In this document: piece by piece, positions 1-12,511 of the stretch
Numbering within the stretch: position 1 is the stretch's first letter
Layout of the letters: each line of letters begins with the position of its first letter
Source of the DNA: Clostridiales bacterium
Lineage (GTDB): Bacteria > Bacillota > Sulfobacillia > CADDZV01
Direction of reading: 5' to 3'
NCBI GenBank assembly: GCA_902812875.1
Contig: CADDZV010000002.1
Coordinates: forward strand, 19,318-43,317
DNA length: 24,000 bases
The notes under the pieces: model-generated
What the model was told of the DNA's origin: nothing
Seen by the model: the letters and a program-made list of their open reading frames with translations, nothing else
Database searches by the model: none
Position numbers and translations under genes: made by a program

Positions 1-778
1 CCACCGTAAGCATGATCTCCTCGCGTCTGCCATGCTCCTTTGCCCGCACGGTGATGACCGAGTTTGCGTCCACTACAAACGTTCGTATGGATATGAGTGA
101 ATATGGACAGATAGGGCTTACCAGCAACACATCGGCGGCGGGATCAACCACCGGCCCCCCGGCAGCAAAATTGTAAGCGGTCGACCCGGTAGGAGTCGAC
201 ACGATCACGCCGTCAGCCGGGTACTCGGCCGCCTGGCGGCCGTCCACCTGGACTTCCAAATGAATCAGGCGGGCCAGCGGGCCCTTGGTAAGGGTGACGT
301 CGTTGAGGGCAAAAAACCCCGGCCCGGGTCCTTGCGGACGCATGACGGTTGCTTCCAGCATCACGCGGTTGTCCAAGAGGCACCGGCCGGCAATATAGTC
401 CGGCAAGGCCGACCAGAGGTTTTTGAGCTCCACTTCCGTCAGAAATCCGATATGGCCGAGATTGACACCGAGAATCGGGACGTCCACCGCCGCCGCCAGC
501 CGTGCCGCAGCCAAAAGGGTCCCATCGCCGCCCATTACGATCAGGAAATCGCTTCCAATGAGGAAGTCCGCCTCTGAGCGGGCGAGGTCCGGCCTGCCGA
601 TCGCTTCCGCGTCCGCCGGCCGCAGCCTGACCTGGACGCCAGCCGACTCGAGCCACCTGGCCAGATCCGCTCCCACGGCCCGCGCCACCGGTTTTTCGGT
701 GTTGAGAAATATGCCTACGCGGCGTGCCCCGCCAGCGGCGGCCCAACCCGGTGAATCTTGCCAAGACCCCACCTTCAT
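1..778 (-). CDS. nadK: NAD(+) kinase (NadK/PpnK); C-terminal end runs off the left edge of the window
   Basis: Hand translation of the minus strand from ATG 778..776 gives MKVGSWQDSPGWAAAGGARRVGIFLNTEKPVARAVGADLARWLESAGVQVRLRPADAEAIGRPDLARSEADFLIGSDFLIVMGGDGTLLAAARL... This contains the GGDGT NAD-kinase signature (around 515-530). The frame stays open to position 1 (...VITVRAKEHGRREEIMLTV). It is absent from the ORF track because it has no in-window stop. Its ATG overlaps the dxs stop as ATGA (775..778). Confidence 0.9.
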   Translation of the reverse strand, partial: MKVGSWQDSPGWAAAGGARRVGIFLNTEKPVARAVGADLARWLESAGVQVRLRPADAEAIGRPDLARSEADFLIGSDFLIVMGGDGTLLAAARLAAAVDVPILGVNLGHIGFLTEVELKNLWSALPDYIAGRCLLDNRVMLEATVMRPQGPGPGFFALNDVTLTKGPLARLIHLEVQVDGRQAAEYPADGVIVSTPTGSTAYNFAAGGPVVDPAADVLLVSPICPYSLISIRTFVVDANSVITVRAKEHGRREEIMLTV

Positions 779-2694
779 ACCGTCCTCCTCTCGGCAGCAC
801 CCACCGGTACGGATGCCTTTTGTCCCAAAAGCTCCCGCGCCGCCTGGGCGATCCCCGCGGGGTCCAAACCATATTGCCGCAGATAGATCGCCCGGTCGCC
901 GTGTGGAACGATTCCGTCCGGCACGGCCAGTAGCCGTACCGGTGCTGCGACCCCCACGCGAGCCATCAACTCCAGCACAGCACTGCCGAAACCGCCGAGT
1001 GCCGTGTGTTCCTCGACGCAGAGCATGGCCCCGGTACGGCTCAGTTCCTGCACCAAGGTTTGTTCATCGAGTGGCTTGACAAACCGGGCATTGATGACGG
1101 AGGCATCAATGCCCTCGGACGCCAGCTGGGCGGCAGCTTCCATCGCCGGGTAGACCATGGCACCAATCGCGGCGATGCTTAGGTCGGTGCCCTGACGTAG
1201 TACTTCGGCACGGCCCACCGCGATGTGTTCTGGCCGGCGTCCCTGCAGGCCCACGGGCACGGTCCCCCGGGGGTACCGGATGGCCACCGGACCGGATAGC
1301 ATGAGCGCCGTTTTCAGCATGTCCCGCAACTCGTCTCCGTCCTTGGGAGCCATCACGGTCATGTTCGGAAGAACGCGCAGGTAAGCCAGATCGTAAAGGC
1401 CCTGGTGGGTCTCCCCGTCGTCCCCTACGATGCCGGCCCGGTCAAGGCTGAAAACGACATGGAGATTCTGCAGGCAGACGTCGTGTTCGATCTGGTCAAA
1501 AGCCCGTTGCAAGAAAGTCGAGTATATCGCCACGACCGGTACCCGGCCTGCCGCCGCCAGCCCGGCCGCGAAGGTGACCGCATGCTGCTCGGCGATTCCG
1601 ACGTCGAAAAACCGGTCGGGAAAAACCTCGGCGAAGTACTTCAACCCGGTACCCGTGGGCATTGCCGCGGTAATCGCCACTATGCGGTCATCTTCCCGTG
1701 CCAGTTCCGTCACCGTACGCCCGAATACCTGGGAGTAACTCGGCCGGCCGGAACCGTTGGTGATGGGGGTACCGGTGTCCGGATCGAACGGGCCGGAAGC
1801 ACCGTGCAGCCGCTCCGGATCGTTGATGGCCGGTTCATAGCCGTGGCCTTTTTCGGTCACCACATGTACGAGCACCGGGCCGTCGGCTCCTCCGGCCTCA
1901 CGCAGGACCTCTTCCAGGGCAGGAATATCGTGCCCGGGAATGGGCCCGAGGTACTTGAACCCGAGCTGCTCGAACAGCACCCCCGGAACCAAAAGATACT
2001 TGAGGGTGTCCCGGAGCTTTTCCACGCCGTGCCATACCAGCTTGCCGAGCCACGGCATGCGTGCGGACTGTCTTTGCAGGGAACGCTTCAGCCTCAGGTA
2101 GGCAGAGTGCGTGCGGGCCCTGGCCAGGTACCTGGCCAAGGCCCCAACGTTCGGGGCGATCGACATATTGTTGTGGTTGAGCACCACGATAAGATGGGTA
2201 CCCAGCTGACCGGCGTGGTTCAACGCCTCAAACGCCATCCCGGCGGTCATCGCCCCGTCGCCGATCACCGCTACCACCTGATAGTCCTCGTGCGCCAGGT
2301 CGCGGGCTTTGGCAAAACCGAGAGCTGCCCCCACCGAAGTGCCGGCGTGTCCGGCCTCGAATATGTCGTGCGGGCTTTCGCTGCGCTTGAGGTAGCCTGA
2401 GAGGCCGCCATACTGGCGTAAGGTATGGAACCGGTCAAGCCTCCCTGTAAGCAGCTTGTGGGCGTAAGCCTGGTGGCCGACGTCCCAGATGATCTTGTCG
2501 CGTGGGCTATCAAAAACCCGGTGCAAAGCAATGGCCAGTTCGACCGCTCCCAGGCTTGGGCCCAAATGGCCAGAGCCGTTGCGGGCAACCGTGTTGATAA
2601 TCACCTGGCGGATTTCCGCTGCCAGTATGGGCAAATCTTTTTCCGGCAACCGCTTTACGTCTTGTGGGCCATGTATGGTCTCAAGAATGCTCAT
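775..2694 (-). CDS. dxs: 1-deoxy-D-xylulose-5-phosphate synthase
   Basis: 639-aa ORF with a typical DXS N-terminus (MSILETIHGPQDVKRLPEKDLPILAAEIRQ...GHLGPSLGAVELAIALHRVFDSPRDKIIWDVGHQAYAHKLLTGR). It has the thiamine-diphosphate motif region (IGDGAMTAGMAFEALNHAG) and a transketolase-like C-terminal half. A GAGGGAG RBS lies 7 nt upstream of the ATG. Confidence 0.97.
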   Translation of the reverse strand: MSILETIHGPQDVKRLPEKDLPILAAEIRQVIINTVARNGSGHLGPSLGAVELAIALHRVFDSPRDKIIWDVGHQAYAHKLLTGRLDRFHTLRQYGGLSGYLKRSESPHDIFEAGHAGTSVGAALGFAKARDLAHEDYQVVAVIGDGAMTAGMAFEALNHAGQLGTHLIVVLNHNNMSIAPNVGALARYLARARTHSAYLRLKRSLQRQSARMPWLGKLVWHGVEKLRDTLKYLLVPGVLFEQLGFKYLGPIPGHDIPALEEVLREAGGADGPVLVHVVTEKGHGYEPAINDPERLHGASGPFDPDTGTPITNGSGRPSYSQVFGRTVTELAREDDRIVAITAAMPTGTGLKYFAEVFPDRFFDVGIAEQHAVTFAAGLAAAGRVPVVAIYSTFLQRAFDQIEHDVCLQNLHVVFSLDRAGIVGDDGETHQGLYDLAYLRVLPNMTVMAPKDGDELRDMLKTALMLSGPVAIRYPRGTVPVGLQGRRPEHIAVGRAEVLRQGTDLSIAAIGAMVYPAMEAAAQLASEGIDASVINARFVKPLDEQTLVQELSRTGAMLCVEEHTALGGFGSAVLELMARVGVAAPVRLLAVPDGIVPHGDRAIYLRQYGLDPAGIAQAARELLGQKASVPVGAAERRTV

Positions 2695-2706: not shown

Positions 2707-3327
2707 TCAACGCTGGCGGGGCTTCGGCTTGGCACCCTTGTGGTTAGACGGTTCCTGAGCCCAAAAGTGTACACCAAAATGGGCTTCTAAAAATGAGAGC
2801 AGTCGTCCCACCACGAGCACTATATCATTGGCACGGTTGATTGCTAATCCCTTGGCCACGGCCTTGCCTCCGACCGTGAGGGCAGCAACCAATGAAACCA
2901 TAAGAGCACTGGCGAGAGCGTCGTTCAAGTGCGGTCGGGAAACCATGATCCGAAATACAATTGCCGCACCTGCCGAGCCTGAGATGGTCCCGGAGACGTC
3001 GCCTACGATGTCATTGCAAAAGCTCGTCACTTGGGCAGCGTGCCGCACGACCGCAATTGCCTGACGGGCCCCGTTGCGTTTTTTGGCCGCCATGGCATGA
3101 AATGGAGCTTCGTCAGCCGCCGCCGTAGCGACACCGACGATATCGAACACGATCCCTACGAAAATAATGGCGGCAAGTACCAGCCCAGCCACGACAATAC
3201 CGCTCACGCGCAAGGCCGCCTCGGACAGAGTACTGACAGCCAAGGCAGCGACGAATGTACTCGCTCCGATGGTGATGCCCCGCCGCCAGTCTTCACGCCC
3301 GAGACGGCCCTGACTCGCTGACGCCAA
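2707..3327 (-). CDS. oapA: Small integral membrane protein, candidate OLE-associated protein A (OapA)
   Basis: 206-aa ORF with about four hydrophobic segments and no enzymatic motifs. It contains a conserved-looking polar patch, FCNDIVGDVSGTISGSAG (D-x-x-x-D), inside a membrane segment. A TTG start at 3327 follows an AGGAG 9 nt upstream. It lies immediately downstream of the structured ORF-free region and immediately upstream of dxs, which is the published position of oapA in OLE loci. The name rests on synteny and size, not on an alignment I could run. Confidence 0.7.
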   Translation of the reverse strand: MASASQGRLGREDWRRGITIGASTFVAALAVSTLSEAALRVSGIVVAGLVLAAIIFVGIVFDIVGVATAAADEAPFHAMAAKKRNGARQAIAVVRHAAQVTSFCNDIVGDVSGTISGSAGAAIVFRIMVSRPHLNDALASALMVSLVAALTVGGKAVAKGLAINRANDIVLVVGRLLSFLEAHFGVHFWAQEPSNHKGAKPKPRQR

Positions 3328-3339
3328 CCACGCTCACTC

Positions 3340-3990
3340 CTGGTAGGAAATGCACGCAAAAAATATACAGTAGGTGGTAGCAGGCCGGGTAAACGTTATG
3401 GCTTGAGGTCCAGCTGGCTTTCCCAAAGCAGCTCCCAGGCGTCGCCGTCCCGGGCGGTTACCCTTTATGCCGCTTCTGCTCCGTCACCGCAAGCAGTGCT
3501 AGACGGCCACTGAGCACATACTGTAATCCCCGGCCTGCCTCTTTCGGGAAGAGCAGCCTAGGGGTTTTCCCCGCCGAATCCGATGACGGCTCCTAGCCTC
3601 TTTTGCGGCTGCGGTTTCGAACGCGTAACCGATGACGGGTAAGGCGCCATACCCGCCACCTCTGAACGTCTTCCACCGCCGCCACTCAAGGCAGGCTACG
3701 CTGCACACAGCCTGCTATAACCGCATGCAGGTTTCTCCCCGGGCCGTAGTAGCCATCATACCACCACGCACCCGGGTCTCCGCGGCAGCAGGGTCGGTCG
3801 CCTACATGCCGTTGTAGATCGCCCCGCTGCCTTAACTCCCAGCACCGGCACCCGGCTGGGCGCCGGCCGCCAGCACCAGAAGCTTCATCGATGTGCCCTT
3901 GGCGGATTTTTAGGCCCGCCCTCAGAGCCGCGGATCCGACTAGGATACTGCACCACCCACTAGAACTTTTGAATCCGCAAGGTCCTGCAA
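3340..3990 (-). ncRNA. ole: Candidate OLE (ornate, large, extremophilic) RNA, about 650 nt
   Basis: A 734-bp gap between bshA-like (stop 4062) and oapA-like (start 3327) holds only two implausible ORFs (61 and 69 aa, Arg/Cys/Gly-rich). It is dense in inverted repeats (plus-strand coordinates): 3691-3697/3709-3715 (7 bp), 3784-3793/3822-3831 (10 bp) enclosing 3802-3806/3813-3817, 3635-3641/3650-3656 (7 bp), 3847-3852/3859-3864 (6 bp), 3901-3905/3916-3920, and 3930-3935/3973-3978. Three of these stems contain a pair that is G-U in the minus-sense RNA but A-C in the plus sense, which sets the strand. The context ispA ... RNA, small membrane protein, dxs, nadK matches published OLE loci. The ends are approximate. 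Confidence 0.7.
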
Positions 3991-3993
3991 TTC

Positions 3994-4002
3994 ATTATAG
4001 CA
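3994..4002 (-). promoter_or_regulatory. Extended -10 promoter element (TGCTATAAT) upstream of the OLE candidate
   Basis: The minus strand reads TGCTATAAT (plus 3994-4002 = attatagca), a perfect TGnTATAAT. There is no recognisable -35 at 17 nt spacing (CGGGGC). It would place a start site near 3987. OLE could also be read through from bshA, since I see no terminator after 4062. Confidence 0.4.
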
Positions 4003-4061: not shown

Positions 4062-5204
4062 TCATCCTGGATACGAAGCCGCGGAATCTATGGCGACGTC
4101 ATCCGGTTCCACCAGGCTTTGGTACAACTCCTCGTAACGTGGTATTAGTTTGTCGGCGGTAAAATGCGCCATGACGTGGTCGCGGGCCGCCCGGCCCATC
4201 TCGTAGCGCCGCTCTGCGTCGAAAAGCAGTTTTTCGCCTGCCTCCGCCATGCCCTGTTCGTCGTCAGGATCGAAAAGAAAACCCGTTTCGCCGTCCACCA
4301 CTACCTCGGGCAAGCCGCCAACGCGGCTGGCAAGCACCGGCAGGCCGCAAGCCATGGCCTCCACGGCCGCCAAACCGAAACTTTCCTCCGCCGATGGCAA
4401 AAGGAACAAGTCCCCTGTGGCCAGGGCCGGCGCCACGTTTGGCACCTTGCCGGCAAAATGGACGTGTTCCCGGATGCCAAAACGTTCGACCAAGGCTTCG
4501 GCGGCTGCACGCTCCGGTCCGTCACCAACCAGCAGAAGTTTCGCCGGGTGACGGGAGACCATACGGGCAAAGACCCGTATCACCCTGTCGATCCGCTTGA
4601 CCGGGCGAAAATTCGACACGTGGATGACCACAGGCATCCGATCCTTTTCCTTGCGGAGACGGGGGCGAAACTGCCATACATCCACAAAATTCGGTATAAC
4701 CGTGATTGCTCTCGAGACGCCAAAAAGCTCGCGTGTGCGCCGGCGGAGATACCGCGAAACTGCCGTCACCCGGTCTACCTGCTCAAGCCCATCCCGCATT
4801 ACCGACGCCAAAGCAGCGTCGTGTCCAAGCACCGTGACATCCGTCCCGTGCAAAGTTACCACCAGGGGCACACGGTCGCGGCCCAAAAGCGTCTGGGCCA
4901 GCAAGGCCGCAGCCAAGTGGGGCACGGCGTAATGGACGTGCACCACATCAAGCTTGTGGGTGCGTACGACATCCGCGATTGATCCTGCGGCGGCCATCCC
5001 GTAAGGTTTGGACGGCAACACGGGATAGTCCGGTAGGCCGATCCTGTGCAAGTACACGCGCCCGGAAGAGTCATCCAACCGGAATGGCCGTTCCAGGCTG
5101 ATGAAATGTACTTCATGGCCGCGCGCCGCCAGGTGGCGGCCGAGCTCGGTTGCGACGACCCCGCTGCCGCCGTAGGTGGGATAGCAAACGATGCCAATGC
5201 GCAT
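4062..5204 (-). CDS. bshA: GT4-family glycosyltransferase, BshA-like (N-acetyl-alpha-D-glucosaminyl L-malate synthase, bacillithiol biosynthesis)
   Basis: [36 protein letters not shown]..., [76 protein letters not shown]. These blocks track the B. subtilis BshA (YpjH) sequence as I remember it ([76 protein letters not shown]). The start is set at ATG 5204, with AAGGAGGTG 6 nt upstream. The track's GTG at 5213 lies inside that RBS. Confidence 0.8.
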   Translation of the reverse strand: [380 protein letters not shown]

Positions 5205-5252: not shown

Positions 5253-5311
5253 AAAAAAACCAGGAGAATTCCGCCTTGACGGCCTGAACGGTACTGGCGT
5301 ACCGCTCCCCT
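5253..5311 (-). terminator. Putative riboswitch expression platform ending in a U7 tract
   Basis: The minus strand after the aptamer reads AUAAAGGGGAGCGGUACGCCAGUACCGUUCAGGCCGUCAAGGCGGAAUUCUCCUGGUUUUUUUAU. It has a run of 7 U (plus 5253-5259) and a CGGUAC/GUACCG hairpin. UACGCC is perfectly complementary to the 3' P1 strand plus one base (GGCGUA), which allows alternative pairing. I could not draw a clean canonical terminator stem directly abutting the U tract. Confidence 0.4.
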
Positions 5312-5315
5312 TTAT

Positions 5316-5420
5316 ACGCCTACGAGGTTAGCTGACGGGCTCGGGCCAAAGGGTGGCCCTACGGTGAGATTCGCCCCAAACGACCTTTGGTTCCCCCGTT
5401 CCCGGATCGGGATTCGGCGT
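5316..5420 (-). promoter_or_regulatory. ydaO-yuaA motif riboswitch (c-di-AMP class) in the leader of the bshA-like gene
   Basis: The minus strand reads ACGCC GAAUC CCGAUCCGGG AACGGGGGAACCA AAGGUCGU UUGGGGCGAAUC UCACC GUAGGG CCACCCUUUGG CCCGAGCCCGUCAGCUAACCUCGUAGGCGU. It matches the remembered B. subtilis ydaO aptamer block by block: CGCUUAAUC, GCGGGGGACCCA, UGGGGUGAAUCC, GUAGGG, ACCCGAACCCGUCAGCUAACCUCGUAAGCG. P1 (ACGCC/GGCGU) is present. The hairpins CCCG-AUC-CGGG, CCAAA-GGUCG-UUUGG and GGCCA-CCCUU-UGGCC fall in the expected places. Confidence 0.9.
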
Positions 5421-5452
5421 TTCCCTGGGTATCGTGGCAGATATAGTGTTAT

Positions 5453-5482
5453 ATTTTCACACGAGCGGGTTTATGTTGTCAA
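5453..5482 (-). promoter_or_regulatory. Candidate sigma-A-type promoter for the riboswitch and bshA transcript
   Basis: The minus strand has TTGACA (plus 5477-5482), an 18-nt spacer, then GAAAAU preceded by TGT (plus 5453-5458). It lies 25 nt downstream of the ispA stop and about 30 nt upstream of the aptamer. Confidence 0.5.
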
Positions 5483-5506: not shown

Positions 5507-6373
5507 TCAATGGACGGGAGAGTCGAGGCGGGACCGTACCATGTCTGCCAGGACGGCCAGCGCGTCTCCCTGGGGGAAGCGAAGTGCGATGGCACTCGCC
5601 TGGTCAAAATACCGGCGGGCATTTTCCACCGCCCCGGCAACACCCGCCAGGACCGGATAAGACATGCGCCCGGCATCTTTATCCTGGTCCTCGAGATCGT
5701 CCACGATCTGGTACCCCAGCCCGAACGACCGCCCGAACTGGGCAAGAAGATCGACCGCGTCAGGGTCCGCTGCACACAGGATCGGACCAAGGCTGGCCGC
5801 GGCTTCAAAGAGGGCCGCGGTCTTCTTTCCATGGAGGTACTGCAGCTGTTCCATCGTAAAGGGAGCGTCCCCGTCGATGTCGGCCGCTTGCCCGGCGACC
5901 ATGCCTTGTGGCCCTGCCGCTCGGGACAGCACTGCCACCGCCTGCACCACCCGCTCCGGCGGCACGCCCGCCGCAGTCGCCTGTGCCAATACCTCAAACG
6001 CAAGCGTCAGTAGCCCGTCGCCCGCGAGAATGGCCATGGCTTCACCCTTTGCCCGGTGCAGGGTCGGGCGTCCCCGGCGGAAATCGTCGTTGTCCATCGC
6101 GGGCAGGTCGTCGTGGATAAGGGAGTAGGTGTGAATAAGCTCGATGGCTACGGCGCCGGGCAAAGCCGCCGCCACGCTGCCGCCGACTGCCCGGGCACCA
6201 GCCAATACCAAAAGTGGCCGTAACCTTTTCCCGCCGGAAAATGTGGCATACCGCATGGCGTCGTAAAGGCCTTCGCTGTGCGGATCAGGTGCTTGGAGCA
6301 CCGCGCGGATGCCGGTCTCGATCAAGGGTGCAACGTCCTCCAGAAATCGCTGGCCGCTTTCCGTACTAGTCAT
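5507..6373 (-). CDS. ispA: Farnesyl/geranylgeranyl diphosphate synthase (polyprenyl synthetase family)
   Basis: 288 aa. It has the first Asp-rich motif LIHDDLPAMDNDDFRRGRPT and the second Asp-rich motif GYQIVDDLED. The start ATG overlaps the xseB stop (ATGA at 6370-6373). Confidence 0.95.
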   Translation of the reverse strand: MTSTESGQRFLEDVAPLIETGIRAVLQAPDPHSEGLYDAMRYATFSGGKRLRPLLVLAGARAVGGSVAAALPGAVAIELIHTYSLIHDDLPAMDNDDFRRGRPTLHRAKGEAMAILAGDGLLTLAFEVLAQATAAGVPPERVVQAVAVLSRAAGPQGMVAGQAADIDGDAPFTMEQLQYLHGKKTAALFEAAASLGPILCAADPDAVDLLAQFGRSFGLGYQIVDDLEDQDKDAGRMSYPVLAGVAGAVENARRYFDQASAIALRFPQGDALAVLADMVRSRLDSPVH

Positions 6374-6654
6374 GATGCCTTGTCCCCACCCATGAACGGT
6401 TTCACCTCATAGGCGTTGTCGGCCGTCTTCTGGAGAAGCTCGATACGCGCCTCCGCCTCGTCCAAAATCGCGGCACACATGCGGGAAAGTCGCATTCCCT
6501 CCTCGAAAAGAGCAATCGCCCGCTCCAAAGGTATCTCCCCGTGCTCGAGCTCGTCGATCACCTGCTCGAGCCGCGCCAAGGCTTGCTCAAACGTGAGCGC
6601 CTGGTCGGATGCCGCCGGTTCGCGGCTGACAGGCTTAGCCCCTTCTTCATTCAT
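6370..6654 (-). CDS. xseB: Exodeoxyribonuclease VII small subunit
   Basis: The core LTFEQALARLEQVIDELEHGEIPLERAIALFEEGMRLSRMCAAILDEAEARIELL is typical of XseB. I prefer the start at ATG 6654, with GGAGG 9 nt upstream. ATG 6660 is an alternative. The track's start at 6690 lies inside xseA and is unlikely. Confidence 0.9.
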   Translation of the reverse strand: MNEEGAKPVSREPAASDQALTFEQALARLEQVIDELEHGEIPLERAIALFEEGMRLSRMCAAILDEAEARIELLQKTADNAYEVKPFMGGDKAS

Positions 6655-7891
6655 CACCATCGACCTCCCGCAATGATACGTGTTCGACAAGACAACCCGC
6701 CTGCCCGTCCTTCATGACCAGGGTGATATCTTCGCCTGCCTGCAGATTGCGGGCCGAAGAAATCACGGGACCGCCGCCCGGGCGGGTGGCCACCGCGTAG
6801 CCGCGCTCCAGGATGGAGAACGGACTGAGGGCCTCAAGCCTGCCAGCCAAAGCCTCATAATGCGCACGCACCGCCCGCAGGTAGTTGGCCTGTGCCTGCC
6901 AAAGCCGGCGCTCCAGCTCGTCGGCCCGTTGCAACCGTGCGGCCAGGGTTGAAAGCGGACGTGCCAGAACAGGTCTTGCGGAAAGCAGCCGCAAGCGCTG
7001 CCGGGCATCGGCCAGACGCCGCCGCAGCATCCTTGCCGCCACCAGGTTCAACTCGTCGATGCGAGAACGCAGGCTTTTCACATCCGGCACGACGAGCTCG
7101 GCAGCCGCCGATGGCGTGGGTGCCCGGCGATCGGCTACCAGGTCAGCCACGGTGAGATCGATCTCATGCCCGACCGCAGACACCACGGGTACGCGGGAAG
7201 CATAGATGGCACGTGCCACGCCTTCGTCGTTGAACGCCCAAAGGTCCTCCTGGGAGCCGCCGCCGCGTCCCACGATGATGACGTCACACTCACCGTAATG
7301 ATTGAGATCGGATAACGCTTCGACGATCTCCCGCGGGGCGCGCTCGCCCTGCACCGTCACCGGCCGGATAAGGATGTGCACACCCGGGTGGCGACGCACC
7401 GCCACGCTGATGATGTCCCGCACCGCAGCACCGGTGGGCGACGTCACGACCCCCACGCAGCGCGGCAAAAACGGCAGGGAGCGCTTCTGGTTGAAAAGGC
7501 CTTCCGCCGCCAGACGCTTTTTGAGAAGCTCGAGGGCCAGATACTGGGCTCCGAGCCCGAGCGGCTCCATGTATGACACATAGAGCTGGTAGGTACCATC
7601 GCGCTCATAGACACCCACGCTTCCGCGTGCTACCACGTGCATGCCGTTCTCGGGCGAAAACCAAAGGTGCTGGTTTTGTCCCCTGAACATGACCGCGTGG
7701 ATGGTAGACTGATCGTCTTTGAGGGTGAAATACATGTGGCCGGACGTATGCCGTTTGAAGTTGGCAATCTCACCAGTGACCACGAGATCCTGCAGCACAG
7801 GATCTGATCCCAAAAATTCCTTGATATAGCGGTTCAAGGCACTGACGGACCAGGGCTCACCGGCACTGGCCGGCTCCGGTAACCATGACAT
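6647..7891 (-). CDS. xseA: Exodeoxyribonuclease VII large subunit
   Basis: It has an OB-fold N-terminus (VVTGEIANFKRHTSGHMYFTLKD) and a catalytic region (VGVVTSPTGAAVRDI, IIVGRGGGSQEDLWAFNDE), followed by a long coiled-coil C-terminal segment. ATG 7891 is preferred, with GAGGTG 6 nt upstream. The track's GTG at 7900 lies within that RBS. Confidence 0.95.
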   Translation of the reverse strand: MSWLPEPASAGEPWSVSALNRYIKEFLGSDPVLQDLVVTGEIANFKRHTSGHMYFTLKDDQSTIHAVMFRGQNQHLWFSPENGMHVVARGSVGVYERDGTYQLYVSYMEPLGLGAQYLALELLKKRLAAEGLFNQKRSLPFLPRCVGVVTSPTGAAVRDIISVAVRRHPGVHILIRPVTVQGERAPREIVEALSDLNHYGECDVIIVGRGGGSQEDLWAFNDEGVARAIYASRVPVVSAVGHEIDLTVADLVADRRAPTPSAAAELVVPDVKSLRSRIDELNLVAARMLRRRLADARQRLRLLSARPVLARPLSTLAARLQRADELERRLWQAQANYLRAVRAHYEALAGRLEALSPFSILERGYAVATRPGGGPVISSARNLQAGEDITLVMKDGQAGCLVEHVSLREVDGDE

Positions 7892-7905
7892 GGCGGCCAC
7901 CTCGC

Positions 7906-8832
7906 CTACAGTGTAAACCGGCCGAAGGCTGCTGCCACCACGTGTTCAAGCAAAATCGCCATGGTCACCGGTCCCACCCCGCCGGGAACCGGCGTCAAAA
8001 AACCTGCCACCGCCGCCGCGGCCTCCGTATCAACGTCGCCGCGCAGGCTCCCATCCACGACGTTGGTACCCACATCGATGACCACAGCCCCCGGCTTGAT
8101 CATCTCCGCCTTGACAAGCCCCGCCCGTCCAACGGCAACCACGAGCACATCTGCCTGCGCGGTCACGGCGCCCAAGTCTGGCGTGCGTGAGTGGGCGATA
8201 GTCACGGTGGCGTGCCGTGCGAGGAGCATGGCGGCAGCCGGCTTTCCCACACGGGGAGAGCGCCCGACCACCACGGCATGCCGCCCCGCCAGCGACGCCC
8301 GCGGCAGATCAAGGGTGCCGTCCTGGGCGGCTTTATCCACTGCCTCGGTCGTCAAAGCGGCCAGTGCCAGGTCCACTAGTCGCATGACCGCCGACGGAGT
8401 GGCCGGAGCGAACCCAGGCTGCCCCTCCCAAAGCCGGCCGGCATTGGTCGGGTTGGTGCCGTCCACGTCGCGCCCGGGATCGATGCTTTCGCACAGCCGG
8501 GCAAAATCGACGCCCGGCGGGACCGGGGATTGGAGGATGATGCCGTCCACGCCGCCATCGGCAGGATCAGCGCCCAACCGCACGAGTTCGCGGCGCAGCT
8601 CGTCCTCGGACGCCGTGCCTGGCAGGCTGACGGTGCGGGCCTCGATGTTCACCTCCCGGCAGCCCTTCTCGATGCTCCGCACATAGCGGCGGGTGGCCCC
8701 GTCGTCGGTGGCCACGAGTATACCCAGGCGCACCGGGCGTCCCGATTCTTGGGCGAATTGAGCCGCCAGTTTGCCCACCCTGGCCCTGATGGCCCGAGAA
8801 AGTGCATTCCCATCCAGCATGACTGCACCCAT
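7906..8832 (-). CDS. folD: Bifunctional methylenetetrahydrofolate dehydrogenase/cyclohydrolase
   Basis: DGIILQSPVPPG, DPGRDVDG, AVVVGRSPRVGKPAAAMLL, VVIDVGTN and TPVPGGVGPVTMAILLEH are classic FolD blocks. The start is set at ATG 8832, which overlaps the nusB stop as ATGA. The 55 extra N-terminal residues in the track ORF are Arg-rich read-through of the nusB 3' end. Confidence 0.93.
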   Translation of the reverse strand: MGAVMLDGNALSRAIRARVGKLAAQFAQESGRPVRLGILVATDDGATRRYVRSIEKGCREVNIEARTVSLPGTASEDELRRELVRLGADPADGGVDGIILQSPVPPGVDFARLCESIDPGRDVDGTNPTNAGRLWEGQPGFAPATPSAVMRLVDLALAALTTEAVDKAAQDGTLDLPRASLAGRHAVVVGRSPRVGKPAAAMLLARHATVTIAHSRTPDLGAVTAQADVLVVAVGRAGLVKAEMIKPGAVVIDVGTNVVDGSLRGDVDTEAAAAVAGFLTPVPGGVGPVTMAILLEHVVAAAFGRFTL

Positions 8833-9254
8833 CAGCTGTTGTCCCCCTCCCCGGACTGACTTACCTTGTGGATGGTACCGAGAATCCCGTTTACGAACCG
8901 TGACGAGTCTTCGGTGCCGTATCTTTTGGCGATTTCCACGGCATCGTTGATCACTATGGCCGCCGGCACCTCTTTGCGGTACAGAAGCTCGTAGCACGCG
9001 AGCCGCAGCACGTTGCGGTCCACACTGGCCATGCGGTACACCGGCCAGTCGCCGGCATAGCGGTTGAGGATGTCGTCGATCTCGGCCAGATGTTCGTAGG
9101 TCCCGAGGTAGAGCGTGCGTGCCAGCATGGCCGTGTCGGCGCCAACGCCGGCCAGATCCTCTACGCTGGCCAGGACGGATTCCACTTCCTGGTGGCCAAC
9201 ATCAGTCTGAAAAAGCATACGCATGGCCAGCTCTCTGGCCTGCCGCCGACGCAT
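8832..9254 (-). CDS. nusB: Transcription antitermination factor NusB
   Basis: 140 aa. MRRRQARELAMRMLFQTDV..., VDRNVLRLACYELLYRKEVPAAIVINDAVEIAKRYGTEDSSRFVNGILG is typical of NusB. Confidence 0.95.
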   Translation of the reverse strand: MRRRQARELAMRMLFQTDVGHQEVESVLASVEDLAGVGADTAMLARTLYLGTYEHLAEIDDILNRYAGDWPVYRMASVDRNVLRLACYELLYRKEVPAAIVINDAVEIAKRYGTEDSSRFVNGILGTIHKVSQSGEGDNS

Positions 9255-9303: not shown

Positions 9304-9564
9304 TCACCGGCGTCCCGGAGGGAGAATGCGATCAATGAAGTCGGTGATATCCTCGCGGGCCGCGTCGAAGTAATGGCCTATCCATAACCCTGTGCCGACG
9401 CAGATGACAATAAACATGGTCCACAAAAAACCGTAGCGCATGACCAGGATGGCGAAAAGGCCGCCCAGAATCCCGCCGAGGGTTTTGCCGCGGTGGGCAC
9501 GCCAGAACCGGTCAAACCAGAACAACCCCTGCGCAAGGTAGTCGTTCGCAGCCCGCTTCTCCAT
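9304..9564 (-). CDS. Small two-segment membrane protein, DUF2273-like (third member of Asp23 modules)
   Basis: 86 aa from ATG 9564, with AGGTGA 7 nt upstream: MEKRAANDYLAQGLFWFDRFWRAHRGKTLGGILGGLFAILVMRYGFLWTMFIVICVGTGLWIGHYF... It has a Gly-rich hydrophobic hairpin. It lies directly after the amaP-like gene, as in described asp23 operons. The track's longer N-terminus overlaps amaP and is rejected. Confidence 0.7.
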   Translation of the reverse strand: MEKRAANDYLAQGLFWFDRFWRAHRGKTLGGILGGLFAILVMRYGFLWTMFIVICVGTGLWIGHYFDAAREDITDFIDRILPPGRR

Positions 9565-9571
9565 CTGCCGC

Positions 9572-10105
9572 TCACCTGGAGCCCCGGACTTCCGCGCTGA
9601 TGTTGACCACGTCCACGTTGACCTCGGCTGCCTTGACCCCGACGATTTCGCTGGCGGTGTCCCGCAGTGCCTTCTGCACAAGTTCCGTGGTCTCGGGCAC
9701 ACTGGCGTCAGGGCTAAGCACCAACCGCGTATGGACCGCGAGCCCGCCCGGCGTCATTTCCACCTCCGCCCTGGCCTCGCGCACACCCCGGGTCTGGGCG
9801 GCAACGCGGCGCATCAGATTACGCACCGCGTAGATCGATACCCGCACCTCACCGAGGTCGTTCTCCCGCACCAGGGCCTGTCCCACCGACGTCCGCCGAA
9901 AAGCCACATAGAAAAACCGGATGCTGATGAGAAAAACGATGCCGCTGATGATGCCAGTGAGCCAGCGGCCGTTTACGGTGTGCAACCCGGCCAAAACAGC
10001 ATTTAGCGGGCCGGTAACATCGAACACAGCCAGGAGTAACATCAGGGAAGCAACGGTGGTAACCAAGGCAAACACTACCAGCACTGCGCGGTCAAAAAAA
10101 CCCAT
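9572..10105 (-). CDS. amaP: Alkaline shock response membrane anchor protein AmaP-like
   Basis: 177 aa with two N-terminal TM segments followed by an Asp23-like soluble domain (LGEVRVSIYAVRNLMRRVAAQTRGVREARAEV...). It starts 1 nt after the asp23 stop. Confidence 0.75.
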   Translation of the reverse strand: MGFFDRAVLVVFALVTTVASLMLLLAVFDVTGPLNAVLAGLHTVNGRWLTGIISGIVFLISIRFFYVAFRRTSVGQALVRENDLGEVRVSIYAVRNLMRRVAAQTRGVREARAEVEMTPGGLAVHTRLVLSPDASVPETTELVQKALRDTASEIVGVKAAEVNVDVVNISAEVRGSR

Positions 10106-12021: not shown

Positions 12022-12468
12022 CTACTTTTGTGGTGCAGTGCACAAGGCGATGGCAGCCGCAAGCCCCAGGTAATAGCTGTGGGCACCAAACCCCGTGATC
12101 TGACCTGTGACCACATCTGCCAGCACCGACTGCCGCCGGAAGGGCTCCCTGGCATAAATGTTGGAAAGGTGCACTTCCACGACCGGCAGTGAGATGGCCG
12201 CGATGGCGTCACGAAGAGCAAAACTATAGTGGCCGAGTGCCCCCGGATTGATCACGACGGCCTGCACGCGGCGGCGAGCCTGGTGCAGGCTGTCGATGAG
12301 CACACCCTCGTGGTTCGACTGCACGATTTCGAGCTCGAAACCTGCCTCCCGCGCCTGTGCACGCAACTGCGCGTTTATTTCTTCCAGGGTAACGTGGCCG
12401 TATACCGCAGGCTCCCTCTCCCCGGTCAGATTCAGGTTTGGTCCGTGTAGGACAAGAATGGTGGGCAT
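12022..12468 (-). CDS. aroQ: Type II 3-dehydroquinate dehydratase
   Basis: MPTILVLHGPNLNLTGEREPAVYG..., QSNHEGVLIDSLH, VINPGALGHYSFALRDA, VEVHLSNIYAREPFR are canonical AroQ blocks. The start is ATG 12468. Confidence 0.93.
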   Translation of the reverse strand: MPTILVLHGPNLNLTGEREPAVYGHVTLEEINAQLRAQAREAGFELEIVQSNHEGVLIDSLHQARRRVQAVVINPGALGHYSFALRDAIAAISLPVVEVHLSNIYAREPFRRQSVLADVVTGQITGFGAHSYYLGLAAAIALCTAPQK

Positions 12469-12483
12469 CCCCGGTTCCCCCCA

Positions 12484-12511
12484 CAATATAAAGCCCGGCA
12501 CCCTGGCCGGG
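12484..12511 (-). terminator. Weak candidate intrinsic terminator after spoIIIAH
   Basis: The minus strand reads CCCGGC-CAGGGU-GCCGGG followed by CUUUAUAUU. The stem is plus 12494-12499/12506-12511. The stem is short and the U tract is interrupted. Confidence 0.3.

Follow-up and report, generated by a model that had tools for sequence, protein, structure and literature searches.

Introduction

OLE (ornate, large, extremophilic) RNAs, typical of anaerobic or extremophilic Bacillota, are about 600 nt long, and some 25% of their nucleotides are very highly conserved. Few bacterial non-coding RNAs of still unexplained biochemical function match them in size and conservation; this holds for the whole family, for which 730 OLE-bearing species have been counted in the literature. 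In Halalkalibacterium (Bacillus) halodurans, the ole gene lies in a large operon and also has its own promoter, and the RNA accumulates at about 630 nt (PMC9723947); a single polycistronic transcript has been reported for the whole cluster (PMC12265935). OapA, the protein encoded next to ole, is structurally similar to CorB (PDB 7M1U), and a DxxxD motif sets it apart from true CNNM/MpfA proteins (PMC11332333). The Breaker laboratory has pointed to a co-occurrence of OLE with PgpH, a phosphodiesterase of cyclic di-AMP (c-di-AMP), and has raised a link to c-di-AMP as a speculation, including the idea of a c-di-AMP synthase ribozyme (PMC11332333). Here we describe the ole locus of a Clostridiales bacterium, contained in a 24,000-nt stretch of contig CADDZV010000002.1 (positions 19,318 to 43,317), which we call the window and to which all coordinates refer.

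A preliminary description of this DNA, made from the letters alone, had singled out positions 3340-4002 as a structured region without open reading frames (ORFs), in the position where OLE RNA would be expected. We now consider it nearly certain, with a probability of roughly 97%, that the minus strand from 3972 to 3358 is ole and encodes the complete OLE RNA of an uncultured, endospore-forming lineage of Bacillota. The OLE copy is structurally intact and is accompanied by its cognate oapA; ends, processing and abundance of the RNA are inferred. While this OLE is an additional copy of an already known RNA class and ordinary in itself, it is preceded by an insertion that consists of a c-di-AMP riboswitch and a bshA-type gene.

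Results

A complete OLE RNA gene

A scan of the whole window against Rfam 15 (cmscan) matched the OLE model RF01071 on the minus strand, at 3972..3358, with 459.6 bits and an E-value of 3.8e-132; the match takes in the entire model (1-616/616) and is not truncated. The gathering score of this model is 50, and the score of the window's OLE falls in the span of 404-558 bits that was found for 38 other full-length OLEs scanned. On the plus strand, the same scan gave no covariance-model match at the OLE region. The comparison with RF01071, which had been proposed as a check, thus bears out the identity as OLE. With respect to the extent, the non-coding gap seen at 3340-4002 is real, but OLE proper occupies 3358-3972, such that the span originally given was off.

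Outside the clade of the window, 38 OLEs share 125 invariant columns; the window OLE has the family nucleotide at 123 of these, and it agrees at 175 of the 181 columns that are conserved to at least 97%. The two apparent mismatches at invariant columns (3460 and 3457) were dismissed as a one-column register shift in the MAFFT alignment around one A-to-U change; in the covariance-model alignment there is a single true A-to-U change at about 3458, which turns GGGAAACC into GGGUAACC. The near-invariant GGGAAACC also reads GGGUAACC in the close relatives L002 and L003, as well as in L044.

Structure and covariation on the minus strand

When the Rfam consensus structure with its 155 pairs was mapped onto the window sequence, 145 pairs were canonical when read as minus-sense RNA (26 of these being G·U), compared to 119 in the plus sense. 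The region is structured to a degree well above chance, with a minimum free energy of -311.5 kcal/mol for the minus strand (z = -7.68) versus -243.6 for the plus strand (z = -2.82). The preliminary description had argued for a structured RNA on the minus strand because three stems contain a pair that is G·U in this sense but A-C in the other. This argument holds, with far more pairs behind it than those of the three stems that had been named. An RNA on the plus strand was therefore rejected: it would lose the 26 G·U pairs, has the weaker z-score and lacks a covariance-model match.

The three stems themselves differ in their standing. All ten pairs of stem 3784-3793/3822-3831 are canonical, nine of them belonging to the consensus fold, and stem 3635-3641/3650-3656 is both canonical and part of the consensus fold in 7/7 pairs. 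The stem at 3847-3852/3859-3864 is complementary as described (6/6), but none of its six pairs occurs in the consensus fold; it was discarded as an off-register alternative of the real hairpin 3862-3870/3848-3856.

For the analysis of covariation, 41 OLEs were aligned by sequence only with MAFFT, namely those of the window, of the close relatives L002 and L003, of L004 and of 37 species-representative genomes, the latter retrieved through OapA. The structure was projected through the window's row, and the 3′ partners were slid by one to three columns as controls. In this alignment, 84.1% of the 6100 cells are standard pairs (40-49% in the slid controls), and 120 of the 155 pairs show double-sided changes; the projected consensus fold is strongly supported by covariation. 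The covariation score was 0.479 versus 0.11-0.18, and the observed values were reached by none of 500 shuffles. Pairing is also kept between individual loci: 15 of the 16 pairs that changed between the window and L003 stay canonical, as do 47 of 52 between the window and L004, 33 of these via a double-sided change. There is thus evidence for purifying selection on the OLE structure.

A terminal helix of 10 bp joins the 5′ and 3′ ends of the OLE, at positions that are unpaired in the structure line of RF01071. Across the 41 OLEs, 84.6% of its cells pair, as opposed to 33-62% when slid, and nine of its ten pairs show double-sided changes. The published OLE consensus has a P1 in domain 2 (PMC12265935), and for this reason we do not claim the terminal helix as a new feature; it is most probably the known P1.

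As a separate observation on the structure, the P3 region of two OLEs of the Oscillospiraceae type (L016 and L043) is followed by about 20 additional nucleotides that form a small hairpin (columns 144-163 of OLE alignment A2) and are absent from the other 39 sequences.

The gap around ole and its coding potential

OLE lies in a non-coding gap of 734 nt that extends from the start of the oapA-like ORF (3327) to the stop codon of the upstream gene (4064-4062) and that is the longest intergenic stretch of the window, in line with its earlier characterization as the only long gap. There are only two ORFs of at least 60 amino acids (aa) inside it, one of 69 aa (3499-3708, minus strand) and one of 61 aa (3632-3817, plus strand). 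In L003, which has an OLE of 91% identity, a stop interrupts the 69-aa frame, and in L004 and L005 the frame is lost to stops or frameshifts. Furthermore, stop-free stretches of about 94 aa (median) arise by chance in all 41 OLE sequences. Because the 69-aa frame is broken in relatives and such chance stretches occur in all OLEs, we regard the gap as non-coding; a coding role of the two ORFs was rejected, as the frame is not conserved. They are mechanical, and the view that the region holds no credible ORF can be retained.

A promoter element for ole

An extended -10 element had been proposed at 3994-4002. On the minus strand this site reads TGCTATAAT; it is kept as TGCTATAAT in L002 and as TGATATAAT in L003, and thus as TGnTATAAT in both relatives, while the rest of the bshA-ole spacer of L003 is essentially unalignable. 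Since the element is kept while the surrounding spacer diverges, this phylogenetic footprint points to an ole-proximal promoter, which a simple promoter scan had missed because there is no -35. Neither the bshA-ole spacer nor the stretch from ole to oapA yielded an intrinsic terminator in the terminator scan, which makes co-transcription with upstream and downstream genes plausible. OLE would hence be transcribed from its own extended -10 promoter (4002..3994), and would probably also be part of longer transcripts that come from upstream.

oapA and the gene neighborhood

Downstream of ole lies oapA (Table 1). Its product had no Pfam or NCBIfam match at threshold, but homology searches gave 603 OapA homologues from OLE-bearing Bacillota, some of which are named CNNM-domain proteins (PF01595). 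In an alignment of 23 sequences, D106-x-x-G109-D110, the DxxxD motif, is invariant. In every scanned locus with enough upstream sequence, an oapA homologue directly adjoins OLE on the downstream side. Within the clade of the window, oapA is intact and 78-95% identical, and no frameshifted oapA was found in L002, L003 or L093.

The order of genes on the minus strand is nusB-folD-xseA-xseB-ispA-[c-di-AMP riboswitch]-bshA-OLE-oapA-dxs-nadK, with tlyA absent. Apart from tlyA, all genes of the canonical ole cluster are thus present and in order, and there is a single insertion, riboswitch-bshA, between ispA and ole. The canonical gene block named in the preliminary description is right in outline, but the adjacency of ispA and OLE is broken by this insertion and tlyA is missing. 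A location in this cluster is a typical association of OLE rather than one that strictly defines it.

Table 1. Features of the ole locus and its surroundings, in window coordinates
Feature	Position	Strand	Basis or remark
nadK (NAD kinase), 5′ part, overlaps dxs stop, leaves window	1..778	minus	L001 comparison
dxs (1-deoxy-D-xylulose-5-phosphate synthase)	775..2694	minus	TIGR00204, 782.5 bits
oapA, 206 aa, TTG start, GGAG 9 nt upstream	2707..3327	minus	homologues, DxxxD motif
ole (OLE RNA gene), complete, 615 nt	3358..3972	minus	RF01071, consensus pairs, covariation, minimum free energy
Terminal helix, 3′ arm, ACCACCUACU	3369..3378	minus	pairs with 3952..3961
Terminal helix, 5′ arm, AGUGGGUGGU	3952..3961	minus	pairs with 3369-3378
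Extended -10, TGcTATAAT, no recognisable -35	3994..4002	minus	22 nt upstream of OLE model start
bshA-type GT4 glycosyltransferase, 380 aa, ATG at 5204 behind AAGGAGG	4062..5204	minus	TIGR03999
Putative expression platform: conserved stem-loops ending in U7 (5259-5253)	5253..5310	minus	
c-di-AMP riboswitch aptamer (ydaO class) in bshA leader	5302..5429	minus	RF00379, 91.1 bits
Promoter-like TTGACA-18-GAAAAT (TG before -10), riboswitch-bshA transcript	5453..5482	minus	promoter scan
ispA (farnesyl diphosphate synthase)	5507..6373	minus	PF00348, NF045485
xseB	6370-6690	minus	Pfam/NCBIfam
xseA	6647-7900	minus	Pfam/NCBIfam
folD	7906-8997	minus	Pfam/NCBIfam
nusB	8832-9254	minus	Pfam/NCBIfam
DUF2273	9304-9702	minus	

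The nadK assignment draws on L001, a metagenomic Logan contig (ERR3971850_5823) with dxs and BshA proteins exactly as in the window. In this contig, where dxs is identical, a 324-aa PF01513 gene begins 4 nt before the dxs stop, with no tlyA in between. The dxs-nadK junction looks the same in the window, L001, L002 and L093: nadK overlaps the dxs stop by 4 nt, and tlyA, whose usual place is between the two genes, is absent. The next-closest relatives L085 and L087 differ in that dxs is missing after oapA, which is directly followed by a tlyA-like S4/FtsJ gene.

On the other side of the locus, the mechanical ORF of folD has 363 aa and overlaps nusB, and that of xseB has 106 aa and overlaps xseA; both exceed the genes called in relatives (304 and 94 aa in L093), and their true starts probably lie further downstream. 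Further upstream, the window holds Asp23, accC, aroQ, spoIIIAA-AH, efp, an M24 peptidase, a lipoate ligase and gcvPA/PB. The class II dehydroquinase gene aroQ (12022-12501, minus strand) is found directly upstream of accC, a position which in Bacillus subtilis is occupied by accB; accB was not seen among the ORFs scanned in the window.

A c-di-AMP riboswitch and bshA between ispA and ole

The aptamer in the bshA leader matches RF00379 over model positions 1-134 of 134 (E 1.7e-20; gathering score 38). The promoter-like site, whose TTGACA is invariant in all three clade members, precedes the aptamer by 24 nt, and the bshA ATG follows it after 98 nt. Between aptamer and bshA, the terminator scan called nothing; the fold there consists of stem-loops and U7, with no classical terminator. 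The U7 tract lies 45 nt upstream of the bshA ribosome-binding site and is interrupted in L003.

The protein encoded behind this leader reaches 465.2 bits with TIGR03999 (BshA, N-acetyl-alpha-D-glucosaminyl L-malate synthase), for which the equivalog cutoff is 273.7, and has Pfam GT4/GT1 domains. Its nearest homologues outside the clade, at 52-54% identity, are named BshA and reside in bshC-bshB-bshA operons without a leader. They come from a Bacillota metagenome-assembled genome and from NC10 (L091 and L092, used for comparison), while others are named Planctomycetota and Terriglobia. Neither bshB nor bshC was found in the 24-kb window or in the 21-kb stretch of L093, and the rest of the genome could hold them. 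That bshA stands alone here, with its homologues in bsh operons, suggests relocation or horizontal acquisition.

Besides the window, the cassette occurs in L001 and L090, two contigs of the same sequence, in L002/L093 (OapA 95% and BshA 91% identical to the window) and in L003 (78% and 75%). It is absent from the relatives that come next in closeness, L085 (OapA 57%) and L088 (OapA 49%), as well as from L004 and 38 other full-length OLE loci; among the loci with genes listed, ole directly follows ispA in L004, L085 and L088. From this distribution, the riboswitch-bshA insertion appears to be confined to a narrow uncultured clade, in which bshA, by relocation or acquisition, would have come to lie directly before ole and would have gained a c-di-AMP riboswitch.

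The host lineage

The window has a GC content of about 61% and contains the spoIIIAA-AH operon, so that its attribution to a high-GC sporeformer was well founded. Together with Spo0A, which is encoded in the sister contig L093, the operon supports Bacillota as the host. The relatives were drawn from JGI metagenome 3300033233 and ENA ERZ27248239. Among the GTDB species representatives, the best OapA reached 50% identity among the matches listed, and BshA shares no more than 54% identity with proteins from beyond the clade. The lineage is uncultured, poorly represented and deep-branching.

Discussion

None of our observations contradicts the assignment of the minus-strand region to ole, though a few points limit it. 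Ten of the 155 consensus pairs are non-canonical in the window, though these are mostly in variable helices, one highly conserved nucleotide is altered (GGGAAACC to GGGUAACC, a change common to the clade and L044), and the synteny deviates from the canonical adjacency of ispA and ole. The latter two observations could be taken to mean that the insertion of riboswitch-bshA rearranged the locus and left behind a decaying or non-functional OLE remnant, with the ispA-ole junction disrupted and a near-invariant nucleotide changed. Such decay is difficult to reconcile with a full-length match to the OLE model at a score within the family range, with 123 of 125 invariant columns retained, with 15 of 16 within-clade substitutions that keep pairing, with an oapA gene that is intact and conserved at 78-95% identity, and with a conserved ole promoter element. 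We therefore hold a remnant to be extremely improbable. Even less credit can be given to the notion that the gap encodes small proteins or an RNA on the plus strand. The 69-aa and 61-aa ORFs exist mechanically, and the plus strand does fold somewhat better than shuffled sequence (z = -2.82); against this stand the interruption of the 69-aa frame in L003, L004 and L005, stop-free stretches at chance level in all 41 OLEs, the conversion of 26 G·U pairs into A-C mismatches on the plus strand, and a covariance-model match on the minus strand only.

A different kind of alternative accepts the structure but takes the region to be, for the most part, an extended 5′ leader with a cis-regulatory role for oapA-dxs, and not a stable RNA acting in trans. 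The short distance from the end of the OLE model (3358) to the start of oapA (3327), 30 nt without a detected terminator, would fit with such a leader, as would the report of a single polycistronic RNA for the H. halodurans cluster (PMC12265935). However, OLE is documented as a family of RNAs that accumulate to high levels as a separate species of about 630 nt, bind the OapA protein and localize to membranes (PMC9723947, PMC12265935), and the conserved architecture of 616 positions is much larger than any known leader. Moreover, by uniting the 5′ and 3′ ends, the terminal helix closes the RNA into a domain of its own. A region that is mainly a cis-acting leader is thus very unlikely, if slightly less so than decay of the gene, and we retain the reading of the region as a complete ole gene.

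What the product of this gene would do can be drawn from the family literature (PMC12265935, PMC9723947, PMC11332333, PMC10898510, PMC12286853). By homology to H. halodurans and to the cryo-EM structures from Clostridium, the OLE RNA would dimerize and be anchored by a dimeric membrane protein, OapA, itself a putative divalent-cation transporter of the CNNM/MpfA-like type. The RNA may recruit further proteins (OapB, OapC and bS21), and the resulting membrane-localized ribonucleoprotein would aid the cell in coping with short-chain alcohols, cold, excess Mg2+ and poor carbon sources.

One more OLE copy adds little in itself, since the literature already counts OLE-bearing species in the hundreds. 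The window OLE does extend the family to a deep-branching lineage of about 61% GC, and thus offers useful sequence diversity for covariation work. In addition, the riboswitch and the gene for low-molecular-weight thiol synthesis that directly precede ole in this clade, without a detected terminator in between, constitute a small but concrete comparative-genomic clue, as the placement of the cassette bears on the links that have been proposed between OLE, c-di-AMP, cell-envelope stress and ion homeostasis.

The usual targets of c-di-AMP riboswitches are K+ or osmolyte transporters and cell-wall hydrolases. In our literature searches, bshA did not come up as a gene under the control of such a riboswitch, and it would be an addition to the regulon of this riboswitch class. 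It is tempting to ask whether the influence of the riboswitch reaches further, such that in this clade the expression of ole-oapA(-dxs) is partly gated by c-di-AMP via riboswitch read-through. Transcripts that start from the TTGACA promoter at 5482 would pass the riboswitch and run through bshA into ole and oapA, as no terminator was detected on the way, and both bacillithiol synthesis and the level of the OLE ribonucleoprotein would be adjusted by the second messenger. That ole has a promoter element of its own (TGcTATAAT) weighs on this idea, which we consider speculative and on balance unlikely. If true, it would be the first natural genetic link between c-di-AMP signaling and OLE, which so far has only been speculated upon by the Breaker laboratory.

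How, then, does the locus compare with the systems that have been described? With ole-oapA of H. halodurans it shares the length of about 600 nt, the conserved nucleotides and helices, and an oapA gene immediately downstream, and it also shares the cluster of nusB-folD-xseA-xseB-ispA and dxs-nadK with an own promoter beside the operon context (PMC9723947). Unlike there, the window has the riboswitch and bshA between ispA and ole, no tlyA, and the A-to-U change in GGGAAACC. The hosts differ as well, the one of the window being uncultured, with about 61% GC and an OapA that is at most 60% identical to that of any named genome. The OLEs of C. acetobutylicum and C. botulinum, known as dimers from cryo-EM (PDB 9LCR; PMC12286853, PMC12265935), belong to the same family as the window OLE. 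The helices that correspond to domain 1 (P3-P9) and domain 2 (P1, P2, P10-P15) all have their place in the window's model alignment. The variable helices of the window OLE differ in length: relative to the model, the loop at 3756-3752 is shorter and 3 nt are deleted at about 3660.

The comparison extends to the two neighbors of ole. Like other members of RF00379 (ydaO/kimA class), the riboswitch of the window has a full-length aptamer in a 5′ leader behind a sigma-70-like promoter; unlike the usual representatives, it precedes a BshA-type glycosyltransferase directly upstream of ole, and its expression platform is atypical. As for the protein encoded downstream, the CNNM-domain Mg2+ transporters MpfA, CorB and CorC are relatives of OapA, and OapA homologues are sometimes annotated as CNNM (PF01595). 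The protein of the window is OapA and not MpfA, because it scores below the Pfam threshold for CNNM, carries the DxxxD motif, and has neither CBS nor CorC domains.

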